Part shown: positions 27,295 through 44,000 of the stretch, one piece after another
Layout: each line of letters starts with the position of its first letter
Position numbering within the stretch: the first letter of the stretch is position 1
Virus record (IMG/VR): IMGVR_UViG_3300047382_000771
Location: 96,001 to 160,000 of that record
Direction: 5' to 3' (one strand)
DNA length: 64,000 nt
Source of the DNA: a virus
Taxonomy: Duplodnaviria > Caudoviricetes
Made by a program: the position numbers and the translations under genes
The notes under the pieces: model-generated
The model's input: the letters and a program-made list of their open reading frames with translations, nothing else
What the model was told of the DNA's origin: nothing
The model's database searches: none

Positions 27295-28343
27295 CTCTTA
27301 TTATAATAAGAATTATAGGTTAAATTTACAGTTAATCTTCCTTGAGCCGACGCACTAACTTGTTCAGCTACCATTCTGGCTTCCCTAACTATATAATCCT
27401 GAACTTTATTACCCAAGCAATCGTCAACCTTAATTGATATATCTTCCACTTTAGGCTTAATTAAATATTCCTTCATCCTGTGATATTCGTACTCATCTAC
27501 CTCAAGGGTAAAGTTAGTAGTTGTAACTATAGGCCAAACCACATCTACTTGTACGGGAGCACTTTTACCCACAACATAAATTGGGGTCAGATTAACATTA
27601 ACTGTATGTTGAAATGAAACCACCCTATCAGTTTTTGAACCAGCACACTCAATTCTTATGGAGCCTGGATCGGGCACTCTAATTTCTGGAAACGGATTAT
27701 CCCCAGAAGCATTATATGGTTGCTCTGGACCAGTTCCCTCAACAGCTATCCCAAAATCATTTTCTTGATCTATATAATCATATGGATCTTCAGAGTCTTC
27801 TGTTGCAAAGTAATCTGGGGCTCCACCTATATCGCCAAACACGGTTACGCTCGTCGATGTTTGTGGTATTTGATTCACGGCGCACGAAACACTATGAGAT
27901 GTCACATACCCATGATAAAAGCCAAAATATTCCTTACCGTGATGAATACTTCCAGTAAAAGGATTATCTCCAGTATAATCTAACATGAAGTCATCTCCAA
28001 CTAAAACTGAATTTATATTAAATTGTCCCTGCATTGGGGCATTAACCACCGCCAGGCTTTTAGGCAAGTCGCCTTGAGATGACATACAACTTTCATTAGT
28101 GGTTATCTTGAAACCATCTTCAGATAAAATAAAATCCTGCTTCTTGAAATACCCTCCCTGAGAAGAAGTTTCCCCTTCCATTTGGCCAACCAATTCATTG
28201 TAGTTGTGATTAACATGCCCCCAACCAATAACATTAATCGGTTTTTCGGATATCGAATAAGATCCGTCTACGCTTTGTATACCTGATAACTGAGTTCCGT
28301 CAACAAAAAACTTTTGTTCATGACCTAGGATAGTTTGCTTCAT
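27291..28343 (-). CDS. tail tube-fold-like protein (distant paralogue)
   Basis: LSGIQSVDGSYSISEKPINVIG, GYVTSHSVSCAVNQIP and VVSFQHTVNVNLTPIYVVG parallel segments of the tube paralogues at 47310-53437. Confidence 0.5.
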   Translation of the reverse strand: MKQTILGHEQKFFVDGTQLSGIQSVDGSYSISEKPINVIGWGHVNHNYNELVGQMEGETSSQGGYFKKQDFILSEDGFKITTNESCMSSQGDLPKSLAVVNAPMQGQFNINSVLVGDDFMLDYTGDNPFTGSIHHGKEYFGFYHGYVTSHSVSCAVNQIPQTSTSVTVFGDIGGAPDYFATEDSEDPYDYIDQENDFGIAVEGTGPEQPYNASGDNPFPEIRVPDPGSIRIECAGSKTDRVVSFQHTVNVNLTPIYVVGKSAPVQVDVVWPIVTTTNFTLEVDEYEYHRMKEYLIKPKVEDISIKVDDCLGNKVQDYIVREARMVAEQVSASAQGRLTVNLTYNSYYNKR

Positions 28344-31300
28344 TAGCTAAGCTCCCCACCAACTCTTTTTTCCTGCCTTATTACATCAAGTACTGCTGCT
28401 TTAATTTTCTTAGATAAATCTTTTTCATTAGCTCCCCCTTTAGAACCTCCAGCCCCTCCTGTCTCTGTAGATGTTTCTTTTCCTGATTCATCTATGCTAA
28501 CATTTACATTTATATTATTAGTGACACTTGATGCCGAGCTTGGTTGCTGCCCAGACTGACCTGTAGACTCTGGGAGAGGGGCCATTTGCGGGGCCTGAAC
28601 TTGCGGCATCTGGGGAGCCATTTGTGGCTGGGCAGACGCACTAGGCAACCTATTGTTAGAAACAACTCCACCCTGGTAGTAATTATTAATTCCTTTCCTA
28701 AATCCATCAGGGTTTTGGACGGCCATCTTAAATAAGTTCGGATTTCTCTTCATCAACTTATCTGTGGATGACTTTTTGACTACAAAATCTCCTTCGTTTA
28801 ATCCAACTGGACCGACCTTATCTATACCAGATTGACCTCTCACTATGGGTATATCCCCCGAAGTATTCAACTGCTCAAGATTTGAATACCCTATTTTCTT
28901 TGCCACACTAGATGGAATTAAAGATTCACCCGCAGTTAACATTGCTGGCACAACACTGCCTCCTTTATTATAACCTCTTAATTTTCTTCTATTAGCGTGA
29001 TCTATTCCCGTTTTATTAGCAGAATATCTATTGTGTCCAGCAAGGATATTTGCGTTAGTTAGATTTATGCCGCTTTGAACTGTATGCTTCTTAGCTCTTC
29101 TGTTTTGTGATATTTGATTTTTGCTTTTACCATCTCCATAAAGGTCGCCAATAAAACTATTAACCTCATCACTAACAGCTTTTGATGTTACATCTTTTTT
29201 AGCTTGATCTAACATTTTTTCTTCTTTGGATTTGAACAAACCGCCTAATTTTTCTTTTCCTTTTGCGATTAAGGGTGAAGCTAAAGTTGTGCCCATTGAT
29301 ACGAGTCCGCTAGTAACATAACCACCTACCATGCCCATAATTTGATTAAAGGTACCCATCCTTTTTTCAAATTTTTGGTTTTTCTTACCAACATTATATT
29401 CATGCAAGTTTAATAAATGTTGTTCGTATTCTTGTAAACCTGCATTACTTTCAGCCAGCCTACCGCTAACCATTTTATCGTTAGCATTAAGGGATACATC
29501 AAATCCTAAATCTAGAGATTGTAATTGTTTTTCATCGAATACTGGGGGGCCAGCCTCTTGAGGTTTTTGTGCTGATCGAGACGCTGCGTGTGAGCCATAT
29601 GCAGAAGCAGCTGTATTCATTACTCCTTGAGCTCCAGACTTTAATCTATCCTGCCAAGTAGCCTTTCCTCCTTTATTAAACTTAGACACAACATCTTTGG
29701 GTATGACATACTCTCCAGCAGTGAGCATAGCGGGAACATTATCTATCCCTCCTGGGCCATTTACTAGTCCACCCTTGGCATATTTTTTAACCTTTCCACC
29801 AGCCATCATTTCAGCAGGGCTTGGAGTAGAATTTTTAATACCATTTAAAGCTATAGGTATTTTAGATATTTCGGTTTTAGCCGAATTAACTTCGCCTACT
29901 AATTTTCCTAAATGAGCGTTCGTAGCTTGAGCATTAGCATCCGCACTTTGTACCAACTGTGATAATTCAGGCGTACCCGCTGTAGCTATTGATTCTTGAG
30001 GGTTTGCTACAGATACTGTAGCTGGCTCAGCCATGATTGGCCTCTCGTATCCAACGGGTACAGCTCTATCTGAAGTAACAAAATCATTAACTTCTTTCTG
30101 TGCAACTTTTTCTTTTGATTCAGCCTGACTGAGTTTGTTTGAATATTTCTTTAATTGCTCTTGAGCTCTTGCAAGCTCAGCTGCTAGCGGAGCAAGAGCT
30201 GCTTCAGCATCTTCAAGCTTACCCCTGAACATTTCTAACTTTGCTATTGCACTGTCATACTCTGCCTTATCCTCACTATTCGTCAAGTCTGAATTTAATT
30301 TTAAATCATTCACCTTATTTTGTTGCACATCAAAATTAGACTGTGCATAATCTTTGCTCTTTGACAACGAGCTAAATTCATCAAAGTTTTTACCTGTAGG
30401 TCTTACGAGCTGATTACCACCCATGAACATTCCCTTGTTTTCGTATAAGGGGCCCTTGAATGATTTGATAGTTTTTTGAGAATTATCAATCATTGACTGA
30501 GCATGGTCTTTATCTGATCTAATGTTGTGTAGTTTTGATTTAGCTATATCTATATTTTTGTTCCTAGTTATTTCAGACATTTTTGAATCATCGTATTTAG
30601 ATACATCCAAATCCCTTTCCATCATAGATCTTCTTTGCATCTCCACATTTACATATGGATTCTTGTCATAGCTTTGTTTGAATGGATCTACTTTGTTTTT
30701 TAAAGCTATAGAATTTATTTGATCCTGGCTCTTCGGCTTATTAGCTTCATTCGCCTTTTTTTCAGCTGTTTTTTGAACTTGCTCTACTTTATCTTTTGAA
30801 CTAGAAGATGGAGCTTCTGTCAGTTGCTTTTTTTCTATAGCATCCTTTAATAGGATAAGGCTGTCTTTAAGATCCACCATTGGTGACTTAAGGCCTTCTA
30901 TAGCATTATCAATCCATTGAGGTTTATCTCCAAACAGACCCTTTAATTCCTCTCTAAATTTTGCAGCAAAATCACTCGCTCCACCAGCAATTTCTGATTT
31001 TAAGTTAGCTACTAATTTTTCTGTATTAGTTAATTCAACTCCGTCAGTGAGCCCAGACTCAACCCTACTAATTAAAGATTCTAGTTTAGAAGAAAGCTCT
31101 TTCTCTACATTAGAAGATTCATCAAGTTTAGCCCCTAATTCAGTATTAGCGTCTACGACCATCTGGGCATCGCTTTTTGCAGATTCCCCAGTAAAAGCAA
31201 AAGTCAAATCCTTAATAATGTTATCTATATTAGCATCCATCATTCTGTCCATAATGGTGTCCGCAATACCAAGTCCCACGTCAGCAAATGCCTCTCCTAT

Positions 31301-34300
31301 GTCCTTGGCTCCAGTAGCTATATCTTTAAATGCTCCTTTTAAGCCAGACCTTGCACTATCAATTCCAAGGTTAACTAAGTCTGATTTTAAGTTAGATGCC
31401 TGAGCGTTCATCTCTGCCATCTTTACCTTGAGAGCATCTACTATTTCAGAGTTATTACCAATCTCTTTATTGTATGCCTTGTAGGCTTCCGCAAATGCAA
31501 GAATATCATCGGGGTCATCAGTAAGTGTTGCCCTTGTTGCTGATTGTCTTACCGCCCCTAGGCTTTGAAATTTTTCTGTCTGAACATCTGCGGCTACCAT
31601 CAAATCCATAGTTGGCTGATCCATCAAGGCTTGCTCTTTAGCATTCCTGAGAGCTTTTAATTTATTACCAGTTTCTTCCAGAGATACAGCAGCTCTCATT
31701 CTTTCTGCCATTTGGTCATTCAGAGATAACAGTAATTCTTTTTTAGCATTTATTAATGAGCTTTTTTCTGTACTTAATATTTCTTGTTCTACTTGCTCTG
31801 AAACTATCTCATTTATTTTACCAGTTATAATAAGTCTTTGTAATTTTTCTTTCTCTAACTTATTACCATCTTTAAGTTCAGATAATTCTTGCTCTATTTG
31901 TTGATCTGCAATTATAGACCTGTAACCCATTTTATCCATTATTTCTCTGCGTATTTGGGCAGTCTTATTGGTGGTTACTAAATCTATCATTTCTCCCTGA
32001 ACTGTAGACTTAATTGTCTCTAAACTTTTTGCATTGTTATCTAGAGCTGATAATTTTAAAGCTTTCTTTTGAACTTCTATAGCTAAATTGTCGGCTTCAG
32101 CTGATGCTTCGTCTGCTACAATTTTACCAAGCATATTCAAGTCAGACAACATACCCCTTCTAATGTCAGCCTCAATAGCCGCAGATTCAGCTGAAGACGC
32201 CTCTTCGCCTATTTTGATAAGTTGATTCTTCATCAGCAACTGTTGCGTATCTAAAACTTCTTGATTCTTGGATGGGGCTGAAGATAGTAAACTGTTACTC
32301 ATTCGAGATGACGACAATCCTTCCATTCCAGATTTTGAAGACTCAATCGCTTGCTTTCTTAAATTTTGAAATATTAATCCTTGAAATGCGAGGCTATCTT
32401 GTTCTAATTTTAACCTTTTTGATGCGAACTTATTTTGAACAGATAACGTTGCGGCTTGACCCATAAGGTTTTCGGTTATCGTTTCTTGTGTCGCTAAAGT
32501 TTTATTTAATTCTTTTTCTAATAATTTAGCCCCCTCAACTGTTTTAGCTTCTATTAATAATTTCTTTAAAGACTGCTTGTTTTTCTCGTCTTGCCTTTTT
32601 GCCTCTAAATCTACAGACACAAGCAGTTGCGAGTATTTATCAGATGCTTCGGCTAATTTCTGTAAAGTACTTTCTTCTACAGCGAGAATGCCAGATTCTA
32701 CCGCCGCAAGTGTTGCCGCCAGCTGTACCCTTGGGTCTTGCTCGTCAGCAATTTTTTGAGTTATTTCATTTAATTTTTCTTGGAATTGAGTACCCTCATC
32801 GATTTCGGCTCCTTCAAATATTCTACTGACACCATTTTTTATTTCATCATCAACATTTAAATCAGTTATAACCCTAGAATTAAATTCAGTAAATTCAAAA
32901 TCTGCATTAGCTGCATTTTGTAATCTTTTATTAAATGTTGAAATTGATTTAGCTAAATCATCTCCTTCTCTCTTTAAATCTGGAGACAATAAATTGGTAG
33001 TCATTATTGTTTTTGCTTGATCAAGTATGGCTATAGATAGTTCATCTTCTGCATCTGCGCGTTTTTTATTTAACGCATCAAGCTGGCTAGCTGCATCCCT
33101 GGATACTTTATTAAAAGCGGCGGTAGCATTACTCATCATGCCATACTCGCTGATTAAATCTTCAGATGCGGCAGACTCTTCTCTTCTTAACTTGTTCAAC
33201 TCTAATTGATGACCGAGGGTTATCTTTTCGTAAGACACTCTTGTTTTAGCTAAGTTAACTAGCTTGTTTAATTCTTTAGCAAATTTAGTGTCAGCCATCA
33301 TGATAGCCTTCTGACCATCAGAGATATCATTTTTAGATAAGCTGTCGGCTAATCTATTAATTAAGGCTGCAAAGCCTTTAATTTCATTATCACTTAAACC
33401 ACCCATATCGTACTCAAACTCATCAGTGGTTTTCTTTAAATTGTCTAGCATACCCTGAATCCCAACGCTACCAACCAATTCGTTAGCGTCAAAATTTAGT
33501 TCGTCTATATCCATTGATGGGTTAGCGGCAAGCTTTCTTAGTTCTGAAATGTTTTTTTGTAATGACGAATCTTGCTCTACGGCACTGGCTCCAGATTTAC
33601 CTTTTAATAAATCCTGCATAGCAAAAGCGCTCCTTGCTCCCTCTGCTTCTGATAGCCTTAAAAATTTCTCTACATTATCATCGCTATCTGCTTTGTCTAC
33701 ATTTTCTGAAAAATTAACCCTGTTTGATTCTACAGCAGTTAACATTTTAGTAACCACCAAAAGATCTTGTAATGCTTTTTTGTTTGCGGCATGAGCTTCA
33801 GTGCTTCCACCCAAAGCTTTATTAACAGCTTTTAATCCAAACTCTCCGACTTTATTCTCATCATAAAGAGCCCCCATGGAATCCATAAGTTTAGAATCAG
33901 CATCTAAGCTTTTTAATCTAAGATCATAATATTCTTGTTCTTGTTTTTGAGTTCTACCTGAGCCTAATATTTCAAGGTCCACCATTTTTTGCTGGATTTC
34001 TTCTTTAGACTTCATGGATTCAAGCGCAGCAGAAACAGTCTCTGAAGTCTTACCCAACTCCTCTATTTGTTTCCTGGCTTTAGAGGCACTACTTGAAAGC
34101 AAATCAAATATACCCTCTCCAACAAAAAACTTAAAAGCCTCATTAACAAGGGTGAAACCTGTGTACAGCTGACCTATTACTGGTAAGAACCTAGTAAATC
34201 CTCTAGCTAATGCACCTACCGACTTACCCAATAGTGGAATTTTTCCACCAGTCATCTTTGCGAGTCCACCACGAACTCCACCTCTTTGCTGGTTCCTTAA

Positions 34301-37300
34301 ATTTCTAGATACAGCCTCCCTCTCACCTGCATTTGCTGCAGCTTCTCTTTGCGGATTTCCCCCAAAAATATCTCCGACACTTCTTTGTTCGTCTGAACTT
34401 TGACCAAGAGCTTCCGATATTTCGGGGATTAATTCTTTTTGTTGCATGTATGCCGCAAAAACCTGCGACGCACCCATGCCTAACTCTGCTAAATTCTTAC
34501 TTGCGCCTGACGCTGTTGATGCAAATTCACCAAGGAATCCATTCGCCATAGAAATCATGGACTGGAAGAAGAATAATCTCTGCAGTCCGTTCTCTCTCCC
34601 TTTAGATTCTGCCTCTATAGCTGCCTCAGCCTTGCCAGTTTTTACAGCCAGATCATTAAATACCCTGGCTACTTTATCGCCTTCTTTTATGACCTCACTG
34701 TCACCTCCAGACCTTGCTTCAGCTTTTTGAAAAGCTCCAAACATTTCTTTCCTGGCAAGATCTGTGGCCCCCGTCAGTGCTGGATTAACAAATGCATCCT
34801 TATCTCCACCCGCTGCAGCTTTTTCAGCATGACTAATTTGGGTACTAACTTCCTCCACAGATTTAGATGCCTTCTCAAACTCTGTCTTGGTTAGCTTGTC
34901 TTTTAAAAATTGTAAACCTTTTTCTAAATCTTTAGCTCCTTCATTGATTGAAGTGATTATGGGTTCTAGGATTTTATCTTGATTAGATCCACCAAGAGGA
35001 GCACTAGGCCCACTAACAGGGACAATAGGCTTTGCTGCAAATTGTGAATAATTACTTTGGCTAGAATCGTATTCACCAAATTTACTCCCTCTTCTTGTAA
35101 GAGCATAGTTAGGTACCAACCCCTTTTGTGCTCCATGTTTTTTAGGGTCGATGTTCATCGACTTAGCTCTTTTAATTCCTTGGTTCACACCTAGAGGTTC
35201 GTCTCTTGTGTTTGTTACAGCTAAACCTAAAGGATTTTTTCTATCCACCAGCTGATTGCTTCTTTCTATCCTGATGGTTGAAGGTGGTACACCAGCAGCT
35301 TTTTCTCTTTTAATGGCTTGAACTAATGGGTCACTAAAATTAGGAACAATTCCTTTATTTGCTACATCATAATATTTATCTTCATCTCCCTTGAAATAAC
35401 CTCTTAGTAAATGATTACTTGTAACTCCTTCTGATATTCCTTTTCTTTGAAAATTCTTTGCCTGAAGTAAAGATTCTGTATGTTTCTTCAAGAAAGACTT
35501 CATTAACTTACTTGGCTGCTTGATTCCATCTTTCTCCATGTTACGAATAACACTTGGGTTATCCATCACAGATTTAATGTGCCTTATGTCTTCCGTGTTA
35601 GCCGATATAGAGAATGTTTCCTTATCAAGCCTAAGACCAGAAACTGGAAACTCCATTTGCATCCACTCTACAATATCCTGAAATTGTTTGTACTCATCAG
35701 GGGTGACTTTTAAATAGTTTTTAGTATCCGCCTTTAAGCCCTTCCTGGCTTTTTCAACCCTATTACTAGCAACAAAGTTAGGGACAAGACCCTTACTTGA
35801 GAACCCCGCCGCAGAATCACCTTTCCCTTTAACCCTTGTGGTCATTAAATCCTGGAAATTTACAGCTTCATCCATATCATATGGACCACCAAATGGCTTA
35901 AAAACTAAACTTGCAATATCTGCATTTTCTGGCTTAGTAAAGTGTTTGTTAATATCACTCTTAAAATTTACAAGACTATCAAAACCCATTTGTTGCTCAT
36001 CATAGCCCTCTGAGTAGCCAAAGACACCCCCAGTTTGTAGACCTTCCTGTACTCTATATTTTATTTGAGGAAACATTGAAACAATATTAGCCCAGGGTGT
36101 CGATCCCATTCCATTTCTCTGGGGAGTCAAAAATCCAGATCCCAAGGATTCGTTATCTTTTAATAATTTATTAAAGTTATTAAATGCGCCTCCTTTTAAA
36201 TCTTTATCCCCTCTGGTTGCGTGCAATATTTCGGCATGTCCCGCAGGGTATTGTCTATACTTCAAGCTGGTTCCCGTTGCAGGGTCTTCCATTTGTCGAA
36301 CAGACATGGCAAAATTTGGCACAAGCCCTTTATTTAAAACCTGCATAACCTCGCTTTCGCCAGGCAAAATTTGACGAGTGCCATTAGGGTTATAACCAAT
36401 ATCTGATTCTGGAACCATTTGTTTCATGGTCTTGTCGTAGAAATCGTATTCTTTTCTACCATATTCCATTTTATAATGGTCCAATAAAGACCTATCATTT
36501 CTTCTACCGTAAACATTCAGATATAGCCCGCCATTTTCTTCGGCCCATTTTTGTATGGCACCACTTGCCATAGCTTCTTTAAATTCCTCAACTTTAGGGT
36601 AGTGTCCTTTTTCGGGGTCAGCTCCCTTGTTTAGTATTCTCAGCATTTTCTTTTTATTGAATACATTTTTTTCTGGGACGGTTTTCTCGAGTACATGACC
36701 TTCTTCTACTGGCTTGCCTGGTCGGATTGCCCCCGCAAAATTCTTAGCAACAGTTTTTGAGGTACTGAAGGATGTCGCTCCAGAAGGTTTCTGGTTCCCA
36801 ACATCTCCAATATCCCTATAGCCAGCCATAACCCCACTTACATGAGATTTAACGAAATCTTGCACAACTCCAACTACATCTTCTGGAGTCTTTACTCCAT
36901 CAAATGATGGCATATTTTTACCAATTGTAGGTTCGTCAATCCCTTGCCTTGATTTATTTTGACCTCGATATAGAGTTAAGTTTGCAAAGTTAGGAACTAA
37001 GCCTTTTGAGAAATCATCTTCTCTTACTGTTTCTCCTGGTTTAGGTTGGTAATAATTTCCAGCTTTTTCTAAAGCCAAACTTATTTCATTAAATAAGATT
37101 CTTTCGTTTTTTATTTTTCCATCTCCACCAGCATAAGAAGTTGTAAATCCCTCAGGGTCATCTGCTTGAGCATCCTGTATTGCAGCCATATATCTATGCA
37201 TATATTTTTCTATCTCTGGAGAATTCATCTGAATCTTACCTCCAGTTCTACGCTCATAAGCGGTTTTAATAGCAGCTTTAATTTGGGACTCTGAAAAATA

Positions 37301-40300
37301 TCCAGTTTTTAAATTGAGGGCATTAAAATTCGGCACTAATCCCTGGGCTGTATTTACATAATCTCTATAAATACTCGGCCTAATCCAGTCAGGATTCATC
37401 TTGACCCCTAAGGAATTCATGCCTTGACTTGCGATGTCTTCGACGTCTGGGTCTGAGTTTAATCCGTAATTAATTTTATTGCCAACCATCTCGTAGCCAT
37501 CTAACCCCTTGCTATTAATAAACTCGGCAGCATGAGAAGGGAGAGCTACATCTAATATAGACGACCCACCATCCCTATCCATCATAAATTCTAACCCAGA
37601 TTTTATTGCGGGGGTGTTATTGGCTTTGGCTAGCATTTTTGTAGCTGTATGAGAAAGTCCAGACTTAGCCGCTTCTCCGTGTGTCACGCTTTTGATAACA
37701 TGCGGATTAATCCCTGTGTCGGGGTTGTATTGACCAGGACCAATATTTACATCTCCCTCTGTATTTTTTTCCCAATCAAATCTTGATGTTGGTCCGCCAG
37801 GGTCTCCCATGTAAGCCCTATCACCAAAAGTCGATTGAAAATCTTTACCCATTTTTGACGCTGTTGCTGGAAATCCAGTTCTTAATACTGTTGATGGGTC
37901 TAGCAAATCTGAGACTGGAATAGACTCAGTCTTTACTGAGCTTGTAGTACGATCAAGCACGTCTCCATTAACATATCCTCCCGAAGAAACCATCTGCCCC
38001 CTATGAGGTCTAAATATTTTACCAGACGCCAAAGTATATTCATTCCTTGCATTGATCGTCTTGCCATCCATATTGTAGACATCTCGCTCGGACGCGTAGT
38101 TAGGTACAAAACCAGAACTTATCCCATGCGACACAACTAAATCCTTAGCGGCTTCATCTATTAATGCTGGATTTTCTCTTAAAGTTTTTTGTAATTGGTT
38201 TTTCTGTATTAAACCTCTAACCTCAGACATGGACATACCAACAGGATTCCAAGAACCCATTCTCGCTAATTGAGCCAAACTTTCTACTAACAAGTCTTCC
38301 TCAATCTTACTGATCATGTAATTTAATTCTTTAGCTACATCATCGTTTGTTAAACCTTTTGCAGATGGATTAGGGGTAGTGTCACCAACAAAAGAATCAG
38401 CTATAGCCCCTACTTGATCCCTGAATGCGAAATTAGAATACCTTCTAATACTCTTAGATGCTATATTATTTAAATCAATTTCTCCAGCTTTTATCTCAAA
38501 AGGCACTTCTCCTGGTTTAATTGCGTCTACTACAAAATTACTTTTACCCTTCGAATTATCTATTTTATAGGAGCCATATTCATCTGTAGCTTCTAGCCCA
38601 GCACTAGATCGATAGCCATCACCTTCTCCGCTCCCCAGAAATAAAGATTCGCCTACATTCCCTTTATGATCATTATTTCCTTTATTTAAATTACTTAAAA
38701 CTTTTTTATGGTAAACTTTTGGCTTTTTAGCCATCCTTGGGACATCATCTATATATCCAAAAGGAATTTTGCTTTCAATTTCCTTAATACCTAACGCCTC
38801 TAAATACTCACCTAAGGACAAAGCAGATTTATCTCCCCCTGTAGCCTTAAAGGAAGAGCCTTTTAATTTATTAGCTTGTGTGGTAAAAGTTATATCTATA
38901 CCAGAGCCCTGTAAATCTTGATCTCCATATTCAGCTATAAACTCTTTTAATTGTTTCCTGTATTCTGAGGTTTTAAACTGTCCAGTCTCTAAACCTCTAA
39001 GCTCCATTGCCTGGGAACCAGTTGTTAAGTCGTTTTGTATGGCTGCGAAGTTTGGTACATAACCCTTGAATGCGTAAGGATCAAAACCATGTTTATTACT
39101 AAACTCTTTTTCGTATTTCTTACCAGCTCTAGAAGATCTAGGCGGCATGATTGCGGGTTGATCCATCCCTGGAAACTTTTTAACTGTTTCTGCTTTATTA
39201 TATACTACTTTCCCGACTCCAGAAATTGACATTGAAGATATACCGCCAGGTGTATACCCAGCTTCTATTGCTCCTTTTCTTTCTTTTCTTTTGGCGGATG
39301 TAGGGATGTGTCCACTCGCTCTTGTGCCCACCTCACCTGTCCCGCTACCATCTAAATCTACAAAAGAATTAGTGTTTACGGTTAAATCTGGATTAACTCC
39401 AGCTCTTAGAGCTGCGCCAGCCAAAGATGAGGCTAATTGTTTTTGCTTAATCATTGCGTTGGTTTGTGCTTCAATAACTTTGAGCATGAATTTTTCTTGA
39501 GCGAGCCTATCTCCCTCTAATTCATTTAAACCTTCTTGAATTTGCTTGTTTTGAGATAATGCACCAATGATGGAATTTTCCATTTGTACAAGTTTCTCTT
39601 TTCTACCAACAACACCTAATACATCTTTTAAACTTTGTGACGCAAACTTACCCACGTTCATAAGCATCTTACCCATTACAGCTGTAAAAGCAACTAAGCC
39701 AGGCCCACTAAGTACATTCCCTATTCCTTTTACGAATCCAGTAAAAAATGTATTACCTGCTTCTTCTCCTCCACCCAAGGCATTCTTTAGACCGTTAGCT
39801 GCACCTTCTACATTTTCTAATATACCTCCGATTGGCCCCTTAAGTGTCAAGTTTCCAATCACTTCAGCCAACTCTTCTATAGATACTGTTGTTCTTTTAG
39901 CTAGAGCGTCTAATGTTTTATTTAATTGCTCATTTTTAATGGCCGCATCGCCCATGGCATCTCCTGCTATAGCGGTTGCTCTTTCAAAGATATTTTGCTC
40001 TTTAGCTAAATCCCTCAATGCAGATTTAAATATATTAGCCTGAAATATACCTGCAGCAAATTGAGTAATATTAGATTGCTGGGATTCAGTTAAAGAATCG
40101 AAAGATTTTGCTATGTTTTGTAAAACTTTATCTGCAGGCAGTAAATTACCTTGTAAATTTTTAACCTGAACACCCATTTCTTCTAGCTGCCTGATGGACT
40201 CAGGTCTTCTTATTCTTGTGAATATTGTTTTAAGTCCATTACCAATCACAGAACCACCTCTAGCAGTGGTTTGTTGTAGCGAGGTTACAATACCAATTAA

Positions 40301-40999
40301 GTTATTCAACTTAACACCTGCATCAATTGCTACAGCACCCGTACGCTCCAACGCATTAATTAAATCTTCAGAACTAACCGCAAAGTTGACATCAACAGCG
40401 GCCAACTTATCAATAATGTCGGTCGTCGTGACACCGCTATCCCCAAATGCATTGACTGCTGCAGTTAAACCAGATACAGCCTCTTCAGCCTTTAAGCTTG
40501 TCAATCGAGTTAAAATTAGTGCATCATTTGTCCTTCTCAAGGTTTCCTCCATGGACAAACCCTGTCTTGAAAACTCTAATGCGGCCTCTGCCACCTGATT
40601 AAAAGACTGCCCCGTATTTTTAGCAGTATCAAACAACGCCATCCCAAAAGCTTCTATGCTTTGTTGTGATGAACCCATTATGACATTTATGTCAGCCATA
40701 ACCTTTTGGAACTTAATAGTTTCAGCAACTAACCCTTTAAAGGCATTACTGACAGCGTTAATTATTCCTACGGAAAGACCAAAAGCTATAACACGGGCAT
40801 TTGATGCTTCTAGTGACTTAGTAAATTCGTTAGCTGAAGCAGTGATTCTCCCCAAAGGCTGGGTAAAAGATTTTGAGTTTACTGAAAAATTAGCCTGCCT
40901 ACCAGATAGCCTAGACATCATTTTGTTGAATTGCATTTCAACAGAACGCATGCCTTGAGCATCTAGCTCTGGTCTTATTCCTACTCTAACTCCTGCCAT
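28343..40999 (-). CDS. tail tape measure protein (4218 aa) with an internal multi-module effector-like cassette
   Basis: TP901-type TMP N-terminus (FDTAKNTGQSFNQVAEAALEFSRQG...TNDALILTRL), long helical segments, C-terminal GGxV...VPAMLTAGE motifs, upstream of M/L/K/I-J genes. Confidence 0.92.
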   Translation of the reverse strand: MAGVRVGIRPELDAQGMRSVEMQFNKMMSRLSGRQANFSVNSKSFTQPLGRITASANEFTKSLEASNARVIAFGLSVGIINAVSNAFKGLVAETIKFQKVMADINVIMGSSQQSIEAFGMALFDTAKNTGQSFNQVAEAALEFSRQGLSMEETLRRTNDALILTRLTSLKAEEAVSGLTAAVNAFGDSGVTTTDIIDKLAAVDVNFAVSSEDLINALERTGAVAIDAGVKLNNLIGIVTSLQQTTARGGSVIGNGLKTIFTRIRRPESIRQLEEMGVQVKNLQGNLLPADKVLQNIAKSFDSLTESQQSNITQFAAGIFQANIFKSALRDLAKEQNIFERATAIAGDAMGDAAIKNEQLNKTLDALAKRTTVSIEELAEVIGNLTLKGPIGGILENVEGAANGLKNALGGGEEAGNTFFTGFVKGIGNVLSGPGLVAFTAVMGKMLMNVGKFASQSLKDVLGVVGRKEKLVQMENSIIGALSQNKQIQEGLNELEGDRLAQEKFMLKVIEAQTNAMIKQKQLASSLAGAALRAGVNPDLTVNTNSFVDLDGSGTGEVGTRASGHIPTSAKRKERKGAIEAGYTPGGISSMSISGVGKVVYNKAETVKKFPGMDQPAIMPPRSSRAGKKYEKEFSNKHGFDPYAFKGYVPNFAAIQNDLTTGSQAMELRGLETGQFKTSEYRKQLKEFIAEYGDQDLQGSGIDITFTTQANKLKGSSFKATGGDKSALSLGEYLEALGIKEIESKIPFGYIDDVPRMAKKPKVYHKKVLSNLNKGNNDHKGNVGESLFLGSGEGDGYRSSAGLEATDEYGSYKIDNSKGKSNFVVDAIKPGEVPFEIKAGEIDLNNIASKSIRRYSNFAFRDQVGAIADSFVGDTTPNPSAKGLTNDDVAKELNYMISKIEEDLLVESLAQLARMGSWNPVGMSMSEVRGLIQKNQLQKTLRENPALIDEAAKDLVVSHGISSGFVPNYASERDVYNMDGKTINARNEYTLASGKIFRPHRGQMVSSGGYVNGDVLDRTTSSVKTESIPVSDLLDPSTVLRTGFPATASKMGKDFQSTFGDRAYMGDPGGPTSRFDWEKNTEGDVNIGPGQYNPDTGINPHVIKSVTHGEAAKSGLSHTATKMLAKANNTPAIKSGLEFMMDRDGGSSILDVALPSHAAEFINSKGLDGYEMVGNKINYGLNSDPDVEDIASQGMNSLGVKMNPDWIRPSIYRDYVNTAQGLVPNFNALNLKTGYFSESQIKAAIKTAYERRTGGKIQMNSPEIEKYMHRYMAAIQDAQADDPEGFTTSYAGGDGKIKNERILFNEISLALEKAGNYYQPKPGETVREDDFSKGLVPNFANLTLYRGQNKSRQGIDEPTIGKNMPSFDGVKTPEDVVGVVQDFVKSHVSGVMAGYRDIGDVGNQKPSGATSFSTSKTVAKNFAGAIRPGKPVEEGHVLEKTVPEKNVFNKKKMLRILNKGADPEKGHYPKVEEFKEAMASGAIQKWAEENGGLYLNVYGRRNDRSLLDHYKMEYGRKEYDFYDKTMKQMVPESDIGYNPNGTRQILPGESEVMQVLNKGLVPNFAMSVRQMEDPATGTSLKYRQYPAGHAEILHATRGDKDLKGGAFNNFNKLLKDNESLGSGFLTPQRNGMGSTPWANIVSMFPQIKYRVQEGLQTGGVFGYSEGYDEQQMGFDSLVNFKSDINKHFTKPENADIASLVFKPFGGPYDMDEAVNFQDLMTTRVKGKGDSAAGFSSKGLVPNFVASNRVEKARKGLKADTKNYLKVTPDEYKQFQDIVEWMQMEFPVSGLRLDKETFSISANTEDIRHIKSVMDNPSVIRNMEKDGIKQPSKLMKSFLKKHTESLLQAKNFQRKGISEGVTSNHLLRGYFKGDEDKYYDVANKGIVPNFSDPLVQAIKREKAAGVPPSTIRIERSNQLVDRKNPLGLAVTNTRDEPLGVNQGIKRAKSMNIDPKKHGAQKGLVPNYALTRRGSKFGEYDSSQSNYSQFAAKPIVPVSGPSAPLGGSNQDKILEPIITSINEGAKDLEKGLQFLKDKLTKTEFEKASKSVEEVSTQISHAEKAAAGGDKDAFVNPALTGATDLARKEMFGAFQKAEARSGGDSEVIKEGDKVARVFNDLAVKTGKAEAAIEAESKGRENGLQRLFFFQSMISMANGFLGEFASTASGASKNLAELGMGASQVFAAYMQQKELIPEISEALGQSSDEQRSVGDIFGGNPQREAAANAGEREAVSRNLRNQQRGGVRGGLAKMTGGKIPLLGKSVGALARGFTRFLPVIGQLYTGFTLVNEAFKFFVGEGIFDLLSSSASKARKQIEELGKTSETVSAALESMKSKEEIQQKMVDLEILGSGRTQKQEQEYYDLRLKSLDADSKLMDSMGALYDENKVGEFGLKAVNKALGGSTEAHAANKKALQDLLVVTKMLTAVESNRVNFSENVDKADSDDNVEKFLRLSEAEGARSAFAMQDLLKGKSGASAVEQDSSLQKNISELRKLAANPSMDIDELNFDANELVGSVGIQGMLDNLKKTTDEFEYDMGGLSDNEIKGFAALINRLADSLSKNDISDGQKAIMMADTKFAKELNKLVNLAKTRVSYEKITLGHQLELNKLRREESAASEDLISEYGMMSNATAAFNKVSRDAASQLDALNKKRADAEDELSIAILDQAKTIMTTNLLSPDLKREGDDLAKSISTFNKRLQNAANADFEFTEFNSRVITDLNVDDEIKNGVSRIFEGAEIDEGTQFQEKLNEITQKIADEQDPRVQLAATLAAVESGILAVEESTLQKLAEASDKYSQLLVSVDLEAKRQDEKNKQSLKKLLIEAKTVEGAKLLEKELNKTLATQETITENLMGQAATLSVQNKFASKRLKLEQDSLAFQGLIFQNLRKQAIESSKSGMEGLSSSRMSNSLLSSAPSKNQEVLDTQQLLMKNQLIKIGEEASSAESAAIEADIRRGMLSDLNMLGKIVADEASAEADNLAIEVQKKALKLSALDNNAKSLETIKSTVQGEMIDLVTTNKTAQIRREIMDKMGYRSIIADQQIEQELSELKDGNKLEKEKLQRLIITGKINEIVSEQVEQEILSTEKSSLINAKKELLLSLNDQMAERMRAAVSLEETGNKLKALRNAKEQALMDQPTMDLMVAADVQTEKFQSLGAVRQSATRATLTDDPDDILAFAEAYKAYNKEIGNNSEIVDALKVKMAEMNAQASNLKSDLVNLGIDSARSGLKGAFKDIATGAKDIGEAFADVGLGIADTIMDRMMDANIDNIIKDLTFAFTGESAKSDAQMVVDANTELGAKLDESSNVEKELSSKLESLISRVESGLTDGVELTNTEKLVANLKSEIAGGASDFAAKFREELKGLFGDKPQWIDNAIEGLKSPMVDLKDSLILLKDAIEKKQLTEAPSSSSKDKVEQVQKTAEKKANEANKPKSQDQINSIALKNKVDPFKQSYDKNPYVNVEMQRRSMMERDLDVSKYDDSKMSEITRNKNIDIAKSKLHNIRSDKDHAQSMIDNSQKTIKSFKGPLYENKGMFMGGNQLVRPTGKNFDEFSSLSKSKDYAQSNFDVQQNKVNDLKLNSDLTNSEDKAEYDSAIAKLEMFRGKLEDAEAALAPLAAELARAQEQLKKYSNKLSQAESKEKVAQKEVNDFVTSDRAVPVGYERPIMAEPATVSVANPQESIATAGTPELSQLVQSADANAQATNAHLGKLVGEVNSAKTEISKIPIALNGIKNSTPSPAEMMAGGKVKKYAKGGLVNGPGGIDNVPAMLTAGEYVIPKDVVSKFNKGGKATWQDRLKSGAQGVMNTAASAYGSHAASRSAQKPQEAGPPVFDEKQLQSLDLGFDVSLNANDKMVSGRLAESNAGLQEYEQHLLNLHEYNVGKKNQKFEKRMGTFNQIMGMVGGYVTSGLVSMGTTLASPLIAKGKEKLGGLFKSKEEKMLDQAKKDVTSKAVSDEVNSFIGDLYGDGKSKNQISQNRRAKKHTVQSGINLTNANILAGHNRYSANKTGIDHANRRKLRGYNKGGSVVPAMLTAGESLIPSSVAKKIGYSNLEQLNTSGDIPIVRGQSGIDKVGPVGLNEGDFVVKKSSTDKLMKRNPNLFKMAVQNPDGFRKGINNYYQGGVVSNNRLPSASAQPQMAPQMPQVQAPQMAPLPESTGQSGQQPSSASSVTNNINVNVSIDESGKETSTETGGAGGSKGGANEKDLSKKIKAAVLDVIRQEKRVGGELS
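28911..29800 (-). repeat. duplicated GG-x-V...VPAMLTAGE motif in the TMP C-terminus
   Basis: AKGGLVNGPGGIDNVPAMLTAGEYVIPK (~29697-29800) and NKGGSVVPAMLTAGESLIPS (~28911-28970). Confidence 0.8.
35102..39064 (-). repeat. eight dispersed peptide repeats G-[YFLI]-V-P-N-[FY] in the TMP
   Basis: Copies at 39044-39064, 38093-38113, 37322-37342, 36983-37003, 36308-36328, 35771-35791, 35333-35353 and 35102-35122 (TMP residues 646, 963, 1220, 1333, 1558, 1737, 1883, 1960). Confidence 0.95.
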
Positions 41000-41076: not shown

Positions 41077-44000
41077 TTAAACTTGACCACCGCAATCGCT
41101 CGCAGTTCTTATGAAAGTATTACCTCCACCTAGTGAAGTTCCATTACTATGATTGGTTATTGTTAGGTTTCCGTTACTATCTGTTGTGTAATTTGATGTA
41201 TTAGATACATTTGTATCATATATAATTTCTCCTTCACTACCTGCAGCTGAAATAAACCCATTTGGGTTAATATTAGCGAACAGAGGATGGTACCCAGATG
41301 GAATATAATTTGTATTAGCCAGTATAGTTGAAATCTTATAAGCATTATTCCCAGCTGTTCTATCTATATTACCAGTAAACCTAACACCATAATAAGGTAA
41401 AATCTGGTTTACGGAACTTTGGAAAGTATTATGGTCTGTTATAATAAATAAACCCCCACCTTCGTCAAAGTAATCCAGCAAACCTTGTATAAGGCTATTC
41501 GGCAAATACGCACCACCCGTATAATTAGTCCCTAGCCATACTATTACATCGTATCCGTTAAAATATGTTTTCCATGCTGATCGCGTGGTGTGCAAATTTT
41601 GCAAATACCCACTATGAGTGCTTGCACTCTCACTACCTATAGAGGAAGCTGTAAACCCTGCAACTCTAGCAATATCGAGTACAGTATTGTGAAATACTTT
41701 TGCAGTGTAATTTCCGCCTGGTGCGTCATTGATATATAAAAGTTTTTTCTGTGACCCCTCTTCTCTTTCCACGTGGCTTATGGCATTATAAAAATAAGGA
41801 TACTGGGCTGGCACAGAAGAATCATATATAGAAACACTTCCATTTTTAATGCCCGCGCTATAAGATGCCCACTTGCTATTGTAAAATTTAGGAAAGCCTC
41901 CATCGAATACAAGCCTACCTCCAGGGCCAGATGTCTGGGTCCTGACTTGGCCAGAACCCTCCGCTATGAATAAATTATTAAATTGATCATTAGCTATAGG
42001 CCTAACCAACCCTCTTGTTTCTAGACTTCCTGTTTGTTCAGATATTGTTATTCCGCTATTCGGGGCGGCTCCTGAAATCTGCAAGTTATTATTGGAGTCT
42101 TTAGTCATAGTGTAATTGCCGCAAGGGTTAGTTACAAACTCTACAGTATTTGATGTACCCGTGACAGCTCCCGCGTTCACATTCCCTGTAGCCCTACATC
42201 TACAATAATACTTAGTGTAAGCTATTAAGTCACTAAATATAGTGGACGTTTGAAATGTGGTGAAAACTTTTGCTTCAACTAATTGATTAAAACTTGAACT
42301 CGTACTTATTTCATAAGTATAAGTAGTAGTCCCGTTGTCATTTATAGCCTGATTATCCAAAGCTGACCTAGTCCACCTAAACTCTAATTCTTTAAATGCT
42401 TGGTATGCAGTTGTGCCTACAATATTCTGTTGTCTTCCAACAAATACAAAATTAGCAGTAATTATATCGTCTGATAGTCCCACGGTAAAAGTAGTTGAAC
42501 TACTATTTGGATCACTGATTGAGCCGATTCCAGTATTACTCCAATTTGAGAATTCATAATTAGTATTTGCTGTTGCCTGAATTTGAATTGCCGATTCGTA
42601 ATAATATTGGTTAGCCCCAATAGTGGATGGAGTAGTGGTTACCCCAGAACCATTAGAGTCTCCATTAACTGTCACGGTGTAAGGCACACTATTATACACA
42701 GCACTAATAACTATATCCGAAGCAGGCATCGACAAAACAGCCTCTGGATTATACTGGTCGCTATATGTGATTCCAGATATATTACTTTCCCATCTATCGA
42801 ATGTAAAACCTCGTTCAGGAATAGCTCTAATTGTTACACTATCCCCATAGTTTGCTACAGAATTAGATGTATTTAAGGTTGTGCCATTAATATTTAAAAT
42901 TGCTTCCTCACCAGATAACCCATCAACTCTTACATTATAATTAACCATTTCGTATTTCGGGGTAATGATTGAGTCTCCAGCTCCTACAGTAAATACCGCT
43001 GGATTACTGGTGGGATTGTCTAAAGAACCTGGCCCAGATATTTCCCAACTAGAAAACTGCCATCCAATGTCAGGGGTAGCAGTAACCGTCATAGTTTGAA
43101 ATATATTATTAGGGAAAGCAGCCTTGCTCGCAACCGCAGTCCCGTTAGACCCATCAGCCACATTAACTGTGTAATCTATGGGGCTGTACACAGCTCTAAT
43201 AAAAGAGTCCGCTGGACCAACAGTTAAAACTGTCCTAGCCGAAGTTATATCGTCCAATAATCCAACTCCCTGAATTATCATCCAACTTTCAAACTTGTAT
43301 CCTGCATCGGGTACGGCTAAGATCTCTACTTTATTATCTATGTTGTATAAGCCAGAACCTAATTCTTGAAAATCTAAAGGCCTGCCTGTTGTATCAAAAC
43401 TATCAATATCGCCATCTACTGTAATTAAATAATCTATTGGGTTAATATTTGCCCTGATTAATGTGTCAGAATTATCAACCCTATAAACTGTCGAAGCATT
43501 TAATTCGTCCCCAATTTCACCATTACCATTAACTATTGACCATGATGCAAAAGAATATCCAGGTCCAGGATAAAATACTAAATTTAATACATCAAATATG
43601 TTATATATTCCACTATTATCTTGCAGCGTACCTATGTAACTATAAGGAAGATTATTGGAGTCAGTCCCCCCTGTTAATATATTTCTATCTGGATACCCAT
43701 TTACAATAAAGTCCATTTTAATATCATAATCTATTAACCCAAACACACCCTTGATCTGAGCATCAGCATTAAAAATTCTAAAATTTGTAGACGACTGCAA
43801 TGGCTCTTCTATTATCCCAAAACCAGTTTGTTCCCAACCTATGAAGTAATGCCCCCTTATGTCGTTAGCATTTAATGGGATTAAAGTGTCTTGTGTGCCG
43901 CTGACTTCTATATTTGGCTGTGGTAAAAGTGGGTGGGTGTCAAATTCAATACTTATATTATAAATACTAAAATAAATATTTCTTGTAGCTGAGATAAACC

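Follow-up and report, generated by a model that had tools for sequence, protein, structure and literature searches.

Bacteriophage T4 makes ADP-ribosyltransferases (ARTs) of the R-S-E type, Alt, ModA and ModB, which serve early host takeover, and Alt is carried in the virion and enters the host together with the DNA. Enzymes are also known in tape measure proteins (TMPs), namely the lysozyme and peptidase motifs of mycobacteriophage TMPs and, in T5 Pb2, a C-terminal M23 peptidase. To our knowledge, the virion-borne ARTs that have been described, T4 Alt and the MuF-ART fusions, all travel in the head. The MuF-VIP2 ART fusions of actinophages are predicted virion components (PMC7302621), and TreX and Tre1 are toxins that ADP-ribosylate arginines of FtsZ (PMC11606950). 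The precedent of T4 Alt and the MuF-ART fusions is that phages can pre-load host-modifying enzymes. In the literature searched, neither an ART in a TMP nor any cytoplasm-directed NAD+-dependent enzyme in a TMP was found. Here we describe a module inside a TMP that is predicted to represent a new family of R-S-E ARTs, one whose delivery context is also new.

The window, i.e., the whole stretch of 64,000 nucleotides analysed, comes from a phage genome of ~200 kb. Related phages are marine and siphovirus-type, and the phage occurs in sequencing runs of seawater and of marine viral metagenomes, drawn from 17 studies. The features that frame the module are as follows.

28343..40999, minus strand: TMP gene (P0001), 4218 aa, from the ORF list and its translation
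35105..39064, minus strand: whole module array, eight G-[LFIY]-[VI]-P-N-[FY] motifs delimiting seven modules
22796-26092, downstream of the TMP gene: lambda-type minor tail protein, PF05939

The 4218-aa ORF is a phage tape measure protein. It matches PhageMin_Tail (PF10145, Pfam) at aa 124-312 with an E-value of 2.9e-28 and 99.5 bits (cut-off 33.2), it is a very long helical protein, and its setting is one of tail genes, with others besides the PF05939 gene downstream and a weak major-tail match upstream. A helical N-terminal part is followed by the module array at aa 646-1965 and a long helical C-terminal part. The TMP contains no cysteine. Neither the TMP N-terminus nor the ART profile described below had a match among 185,579 GTDB species genomes, and blastn of the neighbouring genes against 50,697 GenBank phage records gave none.

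The modules of the array are, in order, 311, 251, 107, 219, 173, 140 and 71 aa long, and the module of 219 aa is the one considered here.

36986..37003, minus strand: upstream linker GLVPNF, aa 1333-1338
36329..36985, minus strand: ART module, aa 1339-1557 (219 aa) of the TMP, predicted R-S-E-clade fold on an AF2 model
36965..36967, minus strand: R1345 in TLYRG (which starts at aa 1342), putative NAD+-binding arginine on strand 1
36758..36766, minus strand: S1412-T1413-S1414 in SGATSFSTS, putative STS motif
36350..36358, minus strand: E1548-S-E1550 in GESEV, putative ExE catalytic motif
36311..36328, minus strand: downstream linker GLVPNF, aa 1558-1563

The motifs and linkers were placed by motif search and back-translation. 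The first-pass annotation had proposed an ART at nt 36329-36982 (TMP residues 1340-1557), with R, S-T-S and E-x-E in canonical order and the linkers as exact bounds. Its coordinates were right, but the strand is minus, as checked by translation, regular expression and codon back-translation. On the translation the three motifs do stand in canonical order, at R1345, 1412-1414 and E1548/E1550, and GLVPNF linkers at 1333-1338 and 1558-1563 abut the module exactly on either side.

The STS at 1412-1414 is the sole STS in the entire TMP. When the module array was shuffled, an ordered [YFW]RG..STS..ExE pattern with plausible spacing turned up 0.35% of the time, and shuffling the whole TMP gave it in ~1% of cases. 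The motif alone is improbable by chance yet not decisive; it is the conservation and fold evidence that decide. STS and ExE lie 136 aa apart, against ~40-50 aa in classical toxins, and in the AF2 model the extra length is a ~100-residue, largely helical insertion at aa ~1445-1545, which comes after strand 3 and before the ExE strand. G-Y-R-D (aa 1396-1399) contains a further arginine, which was not accepted as the catalytic one, given that its position is not conserved in the family and lies in a low-confidence loop; hhalign had paired this arginine with the YRG of T4 ModB.

All 26 of the 26 sequences covering those positions keep the arginine, the T of STS and the two glutamates. The family pattern around STS is S-G-A-x-S-[FYW]-[ST]-T-x, with S or T at the first position of the triplet and S, E, R or N at the third. 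In the insertion, too, there are positions at which K, N, G, Y or P never varies. With dN/dS values of 0.08-0.19, the ART module is under purifying selection.

The AF2 model of the module with short linker parts (231 residues) had a pLDDT of 75.5 and a pTM of 0.77; linker residues 1-3 (V-P-N) and residues 223-231 of the model fell below pLDDT 50. A second model was made of the relative P0009, which is 38% identical. The alignments behind the models were shallow (12 and 22 sequences), with pLDDT for the two models of 70-75. Using VIA-align, the model of the module was compared with 48,161 PDB representative chains, of which 53 reached Z>=2. Of the 50 chains listed, at least 42 are, by title, ARTs or ART-fold NAD-using toxins, and the two clearly unrelated chains among those listed stand at the bottom, at Z 2.1. 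The best structural match was TreX (Z 6.0-6.2, rmsd 2.6-2.7 over 98 aa, 17% identity), followed by EcPltA (Z 5.3), cholera toxin (CT) A1 (5.0), TccC3 (4.9-5.0), pertussis S1 (4.7), Scabin (4.3) and heat-labile toxin LT (4.1). The P0009 model gave 45 chains at Z>=2, essentially all of them ARTs, in unchanged order. Z-scores of at most 6.2 are modest, and for this tool a Z below 8 can mean merely a common arrangement; because of this, the case for the fold rests on the near-exclusive ART content of the match lists and not on the score. The superposed part comprises ~100-120 of the 231 residues, and the matched toxins have nothing equivalent to the conserved insertion of ~100 aa.

Other comparisons agree in tendency. 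Foldseek searches of PDB, BFVD and Swiss-Prot AFDB gave nothing at E<=1e-3 and are informative only through their ART content; the sub-significant PDB list also points to ARTs. Language-model neighbours of the module were EspN/DUF4765, NarE, DRAT and Arr. BFVD and a shape search of the ESM Atlas, the latter with FRG and DUF7587 in the top rows, gave named ARTs among mixed weak rows, and ART-PolyVal and EFV are weak structural neighbours of the module.

The motif residues fall where the clade has its active site. R1345, in L-Y-R-G with an aromatic residue before the arginine, lies within strand 1 (model residues 6-14); STS (model 78-80) ends strand 2 (75-78) and is followed by a helix (81-88); and E1550 (model E216) opens the last core strand (216-221). 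The model thereby shows the R-S-E arrangement, with R on strand 1, [ST]-T-x ending strand 2 and [QE]-x-E, which in the clade comes after an ARTT-type loop, opening the catalytic strand. By alignment end points, R1345 (model residue 11) aligns with R7 of cholera toxin, H21 of diphtheria toxin (DT) and H440 of ExoA, and model residue 216 (E1550) aligns with CT E112, TreX E102, DT E148 and ExoA E553; the CT, DT and ExoA positions follow the known residue numbers of these toxins. Likewise by end points, E1548 and E1550 map to CT E110/E112 and to TreX E100/E102, the TreX numbering being that of PMC11606950. Only 7 residues separate the ExE strand from the next linker, so the strand that follows ExE in classical ARTs may be absent. 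The first-pass annotation had made its proposal depend on an ART fold being predicted, and such a fold, which has a split beta-sheet core as its mark, is predicted: the neighbours of the two family members modelled are almost only ARTs, with R-S-E-clade toxins leading. On these models we consider it highly likely that residues 1339-1557 form an ART fold with an R-S-E site.

Sequence searches gave a different picture. Pfam (E<=10) assigned no ART family to the module and 12 family members, nor to the whole TMP or to any array module, and PF18760 (ART-PolyVal) and PF03496 (ADPrib_exo_Tox) had no match in the whole 200-kb genome. PHROGs gave no ART match for the module; searches of PDB with phmmer and with the family profile (hmmsearch) gave no ART, and a PDB match to 3fgg (E 0.3) was set aside as a chance match. 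Tblastn of the module against the 50,697 GenBank phage records found nothing. In hhalign the family profile scored E 0.13 (probability 0.5%) against T4 ModB and E 0.29 against ModA, neither significant; the T4 side consisted of single sequences of ModA and ModB, which makes for low sensitivity. The kinship with ADPrib_exo_Tox or T4 Mod that had been suggested for the module is therefore not detectable in sequence, by Pfam, PF03496 or hhalign to ModA and ModB. The module is a sequence-orphan family, absent from Pfam and PHROGs, and a new branch of the R-S-E clade.

Several readings of the module itself compete. That there is no ART here, the motifs being chance and the fold an artefact of shallow alignment, could draw on the 12- and 22-sequence alignments, the pLDDT of 70-75 and the lack of a sequence-level match; we find it scarcely credible, since strict motif order arises in just 0.35% of shuffles, two models retrieved almost wholly ARTs out of 48,161 chains, and the motif residues fall on the catalytic positions of CT, DT, ExoA and TreX. 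A catalytically silent ART-fold remnant, kept for a purely structural or spacing role in fixing the length of the tail or in contacting some component of tail or host, would fit the possible loss of the strand after ExE and the modest Z-scores. Yet the three catalytic positions are invariant down to ~35% identity, where synonymous sites are saturated, and a spacer needs none of them. Moreover, tails can be built without the module, which is lacking from 21 of ~27 TMPs in this lineage, and a remnant is very improbable. Catalytic activity as an ART is the likely prediction. The ExE motif by itself points to protein arginine as the acceptor, a prediction that we hold to be evenly poised. An active ART-fold enzyme with another acceptor seems unlikely on the whole, and the options would include DNA or RNA (as for pierisin, Scabin and DarT), attachment of RNA (as for T4 ModB), another residue (as threonine is for TccC3), or mere NAD+ hydrolysis that starves host defences. 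In its favour, Scabin, pierisin-1, TccC3, NAD-consuming toxins of the RES/ParT/MbcT type and 6kyf, the last presumably the ART anti-CRISPR AcrIF11, stand within 1-3 Z of the arginine-specific toxins. The large conserved insertion could be a novel substrate-recognition element, and relatives in the TreX group have evolved differing substrates (PMC11606950). Against it, the module has an invariant E-x-E, not Q-x-E, and E-x-E typifies arginine-modifying toxins (PMC11606950); the closest structural match, TreX, also modifies arginines, those of FtsZ.

To ask how the module is distributed, homologous TMP loci in IMG/VR were collected (n=32, ~27 of them adequately covered). The ART module is present in 6 of the ~27 and lacking in 21, and the modules adjoining it vary between loci. 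Identities are incongruent: in one comparison the TMP N-termini are 73% identical where the ART modules are ~30% identical, and in another the N-termini are 53% identical where the ART modules are 77% identical. Given this patchy occurrence and the differing neighbour modules, the ART module is an exchangeable accessory cassette. The arrangement is like that of polymorphic toxins, with alternative modules exchanged between conserved demarcating motifs, and other toxin-like modules accompany the ART in the TMP arrays. Related TMPs that are covered well into the array have 3-12 linker motifs each, and 211 distinct contexts give a linker consensus of A-S-x-G-[FL]-[IV]-P-N-[FY]-[AS]. No description of the G-x-x-P-N-F motif was found in the literature searched, and the array showed no HExxH, GDSG or similar protease motif that could account for cutting at the linkers.

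The module keeps to TMPs. All 15 HMMER matches among 1.8 billion representatives, and 15 of 15 IMG/VR loci of the module, are parts of long ORFs that resemble TMPs and share these linkers. No convincing free-standing gene for it turned up among 1.8 and 5.8 billion proteins; four proteins of 127-404 aa that might have been free-standing relatives proved to be TMP pieces with the same linkers, probably from split gene calls. Nor was a cognate immunity or antidote gene tied to the cassette established. An Xre_MbcA_ParS_C-like ORF is sub-threshold (22.2 bits against a cut-off of 24.5); one relative with the ART and one without it have a homologue of this ORF, and five others have none. A sub-threshold macrodomain ORF was rejected as antidote, being present with or without the ART and so unlinked to the cassette, and no ADP-ribosylglycohydrolase was found.

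The reading that we favour on balance is a composite one: a mono-ADP-ribosyltransferase of the R-S-E (cholera/pertussis/TreX-like) clade, carried as an exchangeable cargo cassette of the TMP, delivered with it and acting early. In this mechanism the TMP would fill the tail tube and be expelled before the DNA at infection, and the ART segment would enter the cytoplasm, either in-chain or freed at the linkers. There, drawing on the NAD+ of the host, it would mono-ADP-ribosylate a target in the cell, most likely protein arginine, and the modification would precede any phage gene expression, in early host takeover or counter-defence. The first-pass annotation had likewise proposed an injected ART that modifies host targets immediately after entry. 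That the module is part of a TMP tips the balance slightly towards its entering the host along with the TMP and acting early; release of the ART at the linkers is a possibility that we would put a little lower than its opposite. The tail-tube lumen would poorly fit 3 or 6 folded copies of 25 kDa; the module must be either unfolded in transit or kept in some other place. NAD+ is found in the cytoplasm, and an ART built into a TMP would imply that part of the TMP gets there, a point of interest for the fate of the TMP after ejection. The same steric awkwardness of folded domains in the tail tube favours a reading in which the ART is active in the producer cell late in infection and is a passenger, or trimmed, in the virion. 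Free new TMP would then modify host or phage proteins, e.g., tail-assembly partners or itself; the TMP is a late protein, and the cell still has NAD+ at that time. However, the confinement of the module to TMPs among the 1.8 and 5.8 billion proteins is hard to explain unless linkage to an ejected protein matters, and its shuffled accessory distribution alongside other toxin-like modules resembles that of delivered polymorphic effectors, so that we regard action in the producer cell as quite improbable.

A wider scheme we offer tentatively. The TMP of this marine jumbo-phage lineage might be a modular polyprotein for the delivery of several effectors, comparable on the phage side to toxins of the MARTX or Rhs type, whose warheads would be exchangeable and threaded unfolded through the tail tube into the cytoplasm ahead of the DNA. 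The warheads would be the R-S-E ART, probably a restriction-endonuclease-fold toxin, and others; the G-[FL]-[IV]-P-N-[FY] motifs would be processing or docking sites as well as recombination joints; and the phage would disarm the cell before expressing one gene. The patchy, shuffled occurrence of the ART as an accessory suggests a part in an arms race, be it as counter-defence or in shutting off the host, and the conserved insertion of ~100 aa may define a new substrate specificity.

A close parallel is with TreX and Tre1, which are interbacterial toxins delivered by T6SS Rhs proteins (PDB 8S2M, 9GCO, 6DRH) and, like the module, have an R-S-ExE site and a small core. In both cases a variable warhead is carried by a large delivery protein and set off by a conserved demarcating motif; TreX and Tre1 are pushed into another bacterial cell through a phage-tail-like tube, as the module would be in our reading. 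The module differs in having no detectable sequence similarity to them, in its ~100-aa conserved insertion, in that an adjacent immunity gene was not found, and in being internal to the TMP, whereas TreX and Tre1 are C-terminal on an Rhs cage. Cholera toxin A1, LT-A, pertussis S1 and PltA (Enterotoxin_a, Pertussis_S1) share the R-S-E fold, at Z 4.1-5.3, but they are AB5 exotoxins that animal pathogens use against eukaryotic G proteins, and the ART-clan Pfam models miss the module. Among phage enzymes, the LYRG and SFTTS of T4 ModB resemble in wording the module's TLYRG and SFSTS, and T4 Alt is a separate gene product carried in the head, while the module lies inside a tail-tube protein. The MuF-toxin fusions (also EFV of E. 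faecalis) and ART-PolyVal likewise have an ART among alternative modules on a virion or ejected protein (PMC7302621); there the carrier is a head or polyvalent protein and the ART is terminal, whereas here the carrier is the TMP and the ART is part of an internal array. An ART in a TMP would make the content of the tail tube itself an effector-delivery vehicle. Known TMP enzymes act on the host during entry, as the module would in our reading, but they do so on peptidoglycan, outside the cytoplasm.

The first-pass annotation had placed an ADP-ribosyltransferase (ART) module between two linkers of the tape measure protein (TMP), with TLYRG, S-T-S and E-x-E in that order. The module's coordinates, all three motifs and the bounding linkers were each confirmed by regular expression and codon back-translation, on the minus strand.

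The predicted ART module and its carrier protein
28343-40999, minus strand: TMP open reading frame (P0001, 4218 aa); from the ORF list and translation
36329-36982, minus strand: ART module, residues 1340-1557; from the translation
36965-36967, minus strand: R1345 in TLYRG; regular expression on the translation plus codon back-translation
36758-36766, minus strand: S1412-T-S1414; regular expression plus codon back-translation
36350-36358, minus strand: E1548-S-E1550; regular expression plus codon back-translation
aa 1333-1338, minus strand: GLVPNF directly preceding the module; regular expression plus codon back-translation
aa 1558-1563, minus strand: GLVPNF directly following the module; regular expression plus codon back-translation

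The STS at 1412-1414 is the only one found by regular expression in all of P0001. When the array region was shuffled (35105-39064, minus strand, where eight G-x-x-P-N-F linkers bound seven modules), R, STS and ExE occurred in order and with plausible spacing in 0.35% of the shuffles. The trio is thus unlikely to have arisen by chance, though it is not decisive by itself.

Judged from its sequence, P0001 is a tape measure protein. Residues 124-312 matched PhageMin_Tail (PF10145) with an E value of 2.9e-28, a lambda-type minor tail protein (PF05939) and further tail genes are encoded downstream, and a weak match to a major tail protein lies upstream. P0001 (28343-40999, minus strand) has no cysteine in its 4218 residues and only 8 tryptophans. 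The position directly upstream of a TMP gene is usually occupied by tail chaperone genes; here the product of the gene at that position (41077-44511, minus strand) is 1144 aa long, contains four Flg_new_2 (InlB B-repeat-like) domains and matches a virion structural protein. The window's source is an IMG/VR record of 200,094 bp that is rated complete, and complete genomes of its relatives span 146-214 kb. Across 17 studies, near-identical DNA was present in metagenomes of seawater and of marine viruses, and no relative was found among 50,697 GenBank phage records or 185,579 GTDB species genomes. A related 142-kb record (G007, locus L049) is classed by IMG/VR as a provirus, and its ends might name the lineage's host.

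Searched against Pfam, PHROGs and the PDB sequence set, the ART module was recognised neither as a single sequence nor as a profile. An AlphaFold2 model of the module, built on a 12-sequence alignment, had a pLDDT of 75.5 and a pTM of 0.77. In the model, R1345 lies on the first strand (6-14), STS closes strand 75-78 and is followed by helix 81-88, and ExE opens the last strand (216-221). At either end of the model, linker residues had pLDDT values <50, consistent with their being flexible connectors. Foldseek returned no match to the model at E<=1e-3, and its weak PDB list consisted almost entirely of ARTs. With a Foldseek-independent aligner, 53 of 48,161 PDB representative chains matched the model at Z>=2; among the matches listed, at least 42 of 50 were ARTs or ART-fold NAD-using toxins by title, and two clearly unrelated chains stood at the bottom, at Z 2.1.

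Structural matches to the module model
TreX: Z 6.0-6.2, rmsd 2.6-2.7 over 98 residues
EcPltA: Z 5.3
TccC3: Z 4.9-5.0
Cholera toxin A1: Z 5.0
Pertussis S1: Z 4.7
Scabin: Z 4.3
LT: Z 4.1

These Z values are modest, and the aligner itself cautions that a Z <8 may reflect a common arrangement. What carries the argument for an ART fold is therefore that the match list is made up almost exclusively of ARTs. A second model, of the database relative P0009 (38% identical; pLDDT 70.1), matched 45 chains at Z>=2, essentially all of them ARTs and in the same order. The ART fold proposed by the first-pass annotation was accordingly predicted for both the module and P0009, with neighbours that were nearly all ARTs. 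Language-model neighbours (EspN/DUF4765, NarE, DRAT and Arr) agreed with an ART, and the BFVD and ESM Atlas neighbours were mixed weak rows that included ART exoenzymes, ART-PolyVal and Vis; FRG and DUF7587 headed the ESM Atlas list. The module contains a conserved insertion of ~100 aa and may lack the strand usually found after the ExE strand. Among otherwise ART-only neighbours there was also PDB 9k3a chain B (residues ~1418-1621), a domain of a pre-ejectosome protein of cyanophage A4, at Z 3.0 with the module and 2.6 with P0009. The paper on that structure assigned only lytic transglycosylase and M23 peptidase domains and lacks the term 'ADP-ribosyl' (PMC12002296); the 9k3a domain could represent an ART-like domain that has gone unrecognised in a further ejection protein.

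Residue correspondence was mapped from the end points of the structural alignments, assuming no gaps in the few terminal residues. The known sites are R7 and E110/E112 in cholera toxin (CT), H21 and E148 in diphtheria toxin, and H440 and E553 in exotoxin A. Alignment of CT A1 1-120 with model 5-224 put R7 on model residue 11 (R1345) and E110/E112 on 214/216 (E1548/E1550). With diphtheria toxin 14-152 (model 4-220), residues 11 and 216 were paired with H21 and E148, and with exotoxin A 431-557 (model 2-220) they were paired with H440 and E553; TreX 9-110 (model 4/5-223/224) placed E102 on residue 216 (TreX numbering from PMC11606950). Because it is consistent over four families, this model-based mapping of R1345 and E1548/E1550 is credible.

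Only 15 relatives emerged when 1.84 billion representative proteins were scanned exhaustively with HMMER. The long sequences among them are giant proteins sharing the G-x-x-P-N-F motifs, and three are short fragments with one linker motif or none (two weak matches and P0012, a database relative). A profile search limited to 127-404-aa proteins added four matches, all evidently TMP pieces, and in IMG/VR all 15 loci with the module had it within a long open frame with linkers. Given these matches, the family is narrow, virus-only as far as visible, and never convincingly free-standing. In alignments of 12, 22 and 27 sequences, with identity down to about 30-38%, the R of [YWQK]-R-G-Q, the T of [ST]-T-x and both E of E-x-E were invariant in every covering sequence. 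Pairwise dN/dS, for pairs without saturated synonymous sites, was 0.08-0.19. The module, as read from these alignments, is under purifying selection, with the putative catalytic residues most constrained. A second, longer subtype (L017/L020, L034, P0010-P0012 and P0017) carries a ~35-50-aa insertion ahead of the [ST]-T motif, and T-T-[SR] replaces S-T-S. In L007 and L008 the linker downstream of the ART is degenerate, so that the ART is fused to the adjacent module.

The TMP frame was read downstream in 32 IMG/VR loci retrieved by homology to the N-terminus of the TMP. The array (loci L018-L049) is lineage-wide: every TMP covered well into it had 3-12 motif copies, the first at about residue 540-650, with the consensus A-S-x-G-[FL]-[IV]-P-N-[FY]-[AS] (211 distinct contexts). 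TMPs reaching a stop codon were 2325 to 3712 aa long, and several others, like the window's 4218-aa protein, exceed 3,840 aa. Most loci share a ~84-98-aa module after the first motif and, bounded by the final two motifs, a ~77-aa last module; the modules between them are variable. The ART profile matched 6 of ~27 adequately covered TMPs, and the ART's neighbours varied between loci. Identities were incongruent: in one contig, identity to the window was 73% for the TMP N-terminus and only ~30% for the ART, and three contigs showed the opposite, with 53% N-termini and 77% ARTs. This distribution, the differing neighbours and the incongruent identities mark the ART, by comparison of sequences, as an accessory cassette exchanged horizontally. 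Tail building can do without it, and this speaks for a role as cargo or effector over a structural one. As to other modules, the window's first (38114-39046, minus strand, aa 652-962) had Tox-REase-2, 3, 5, 7 and 9 and a CDI toxin as language-model neighbours (scores <=0.88); as a lead only, a restriction-endonuclease-fold toxin of polymorphic toxin systems would fit the effector theme. The sixth gave a sub-threshold RhoGAP match at 35447-35617, minus strand, aa 1795-1851 (PF00620; 20.1 bits, cut-off 24.5), with an E value of 6e-4 on the excised module.

Searches of the genome with PF18760 and PF03496 gave no recognisable further ART, and the genome had no ADP-ribosylglycohydrolase. A 167-aa macrodomain ORF outside the window (L050:1324-1827, minus strand; genome ~8.75-9.26 kb) was sub-threshold, at 20.5 bits against a cut-off of 22. 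It is kept in four complete relatives, three of them with an ART-less TMP, and was rejected as a dedicated partner, being present with or without an ART in the TMP. Xre_MbcA_ParS_C is an antitoxin domain that blocks RES (ART-fold) toxins. A 68-aa ORF, also outside the window (L055:1435-1641, plus strand; genome ~170.48-170.68 kb), gave a sub-threshold match to it (22.2 bits against 24.5) and bears that family's W-L..P-N hallmark; one ART-plus and one ART-minus relative have homologues and five others have none, a spread that fits both with a tie to the ART cassette and with independence from it.

In sum, the analysis shows an exchangeable module embedded in the TMP, with a predicted ART fold whose R-S-ExE site is intact and conserved. 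TMPs leave the tail ahead of the DNA, and T4 Alt is a virion-borne ART. MuF-VIP2 ART fusions are likewise predicted virion components (PMC7302621). On these grounds the module would enter the host together with the TMP and, drawing on NAD+ in the cytoplasm, would modify a host target ahead of phage gene expression. The ExE favours a protein arginine as acceptor; FtsZ arginines are the target of TreX and Tre1 (PMC11606950). With three or more copies per tail tube, a domain of 25 kDa would presumably be in transit unfolded. The array contains no protease motif (HExxH, GDSG or similar) to account for possible cleavage at the linkers.

In literature searches covering part of the journals, we found no paper on an ART inside a TMP or on a toxin array in a TMP, and no publication or function for the G-x-x-P-N-F motif. 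The enzyme class and the concept of virion-delivered phage ARTs are already known; what is new is the sequence family, its location within a TMP and its behaviour as a cassette. Compared with classical ART toxins, the module departs in its STS-to-ExE gap of 136 residues.
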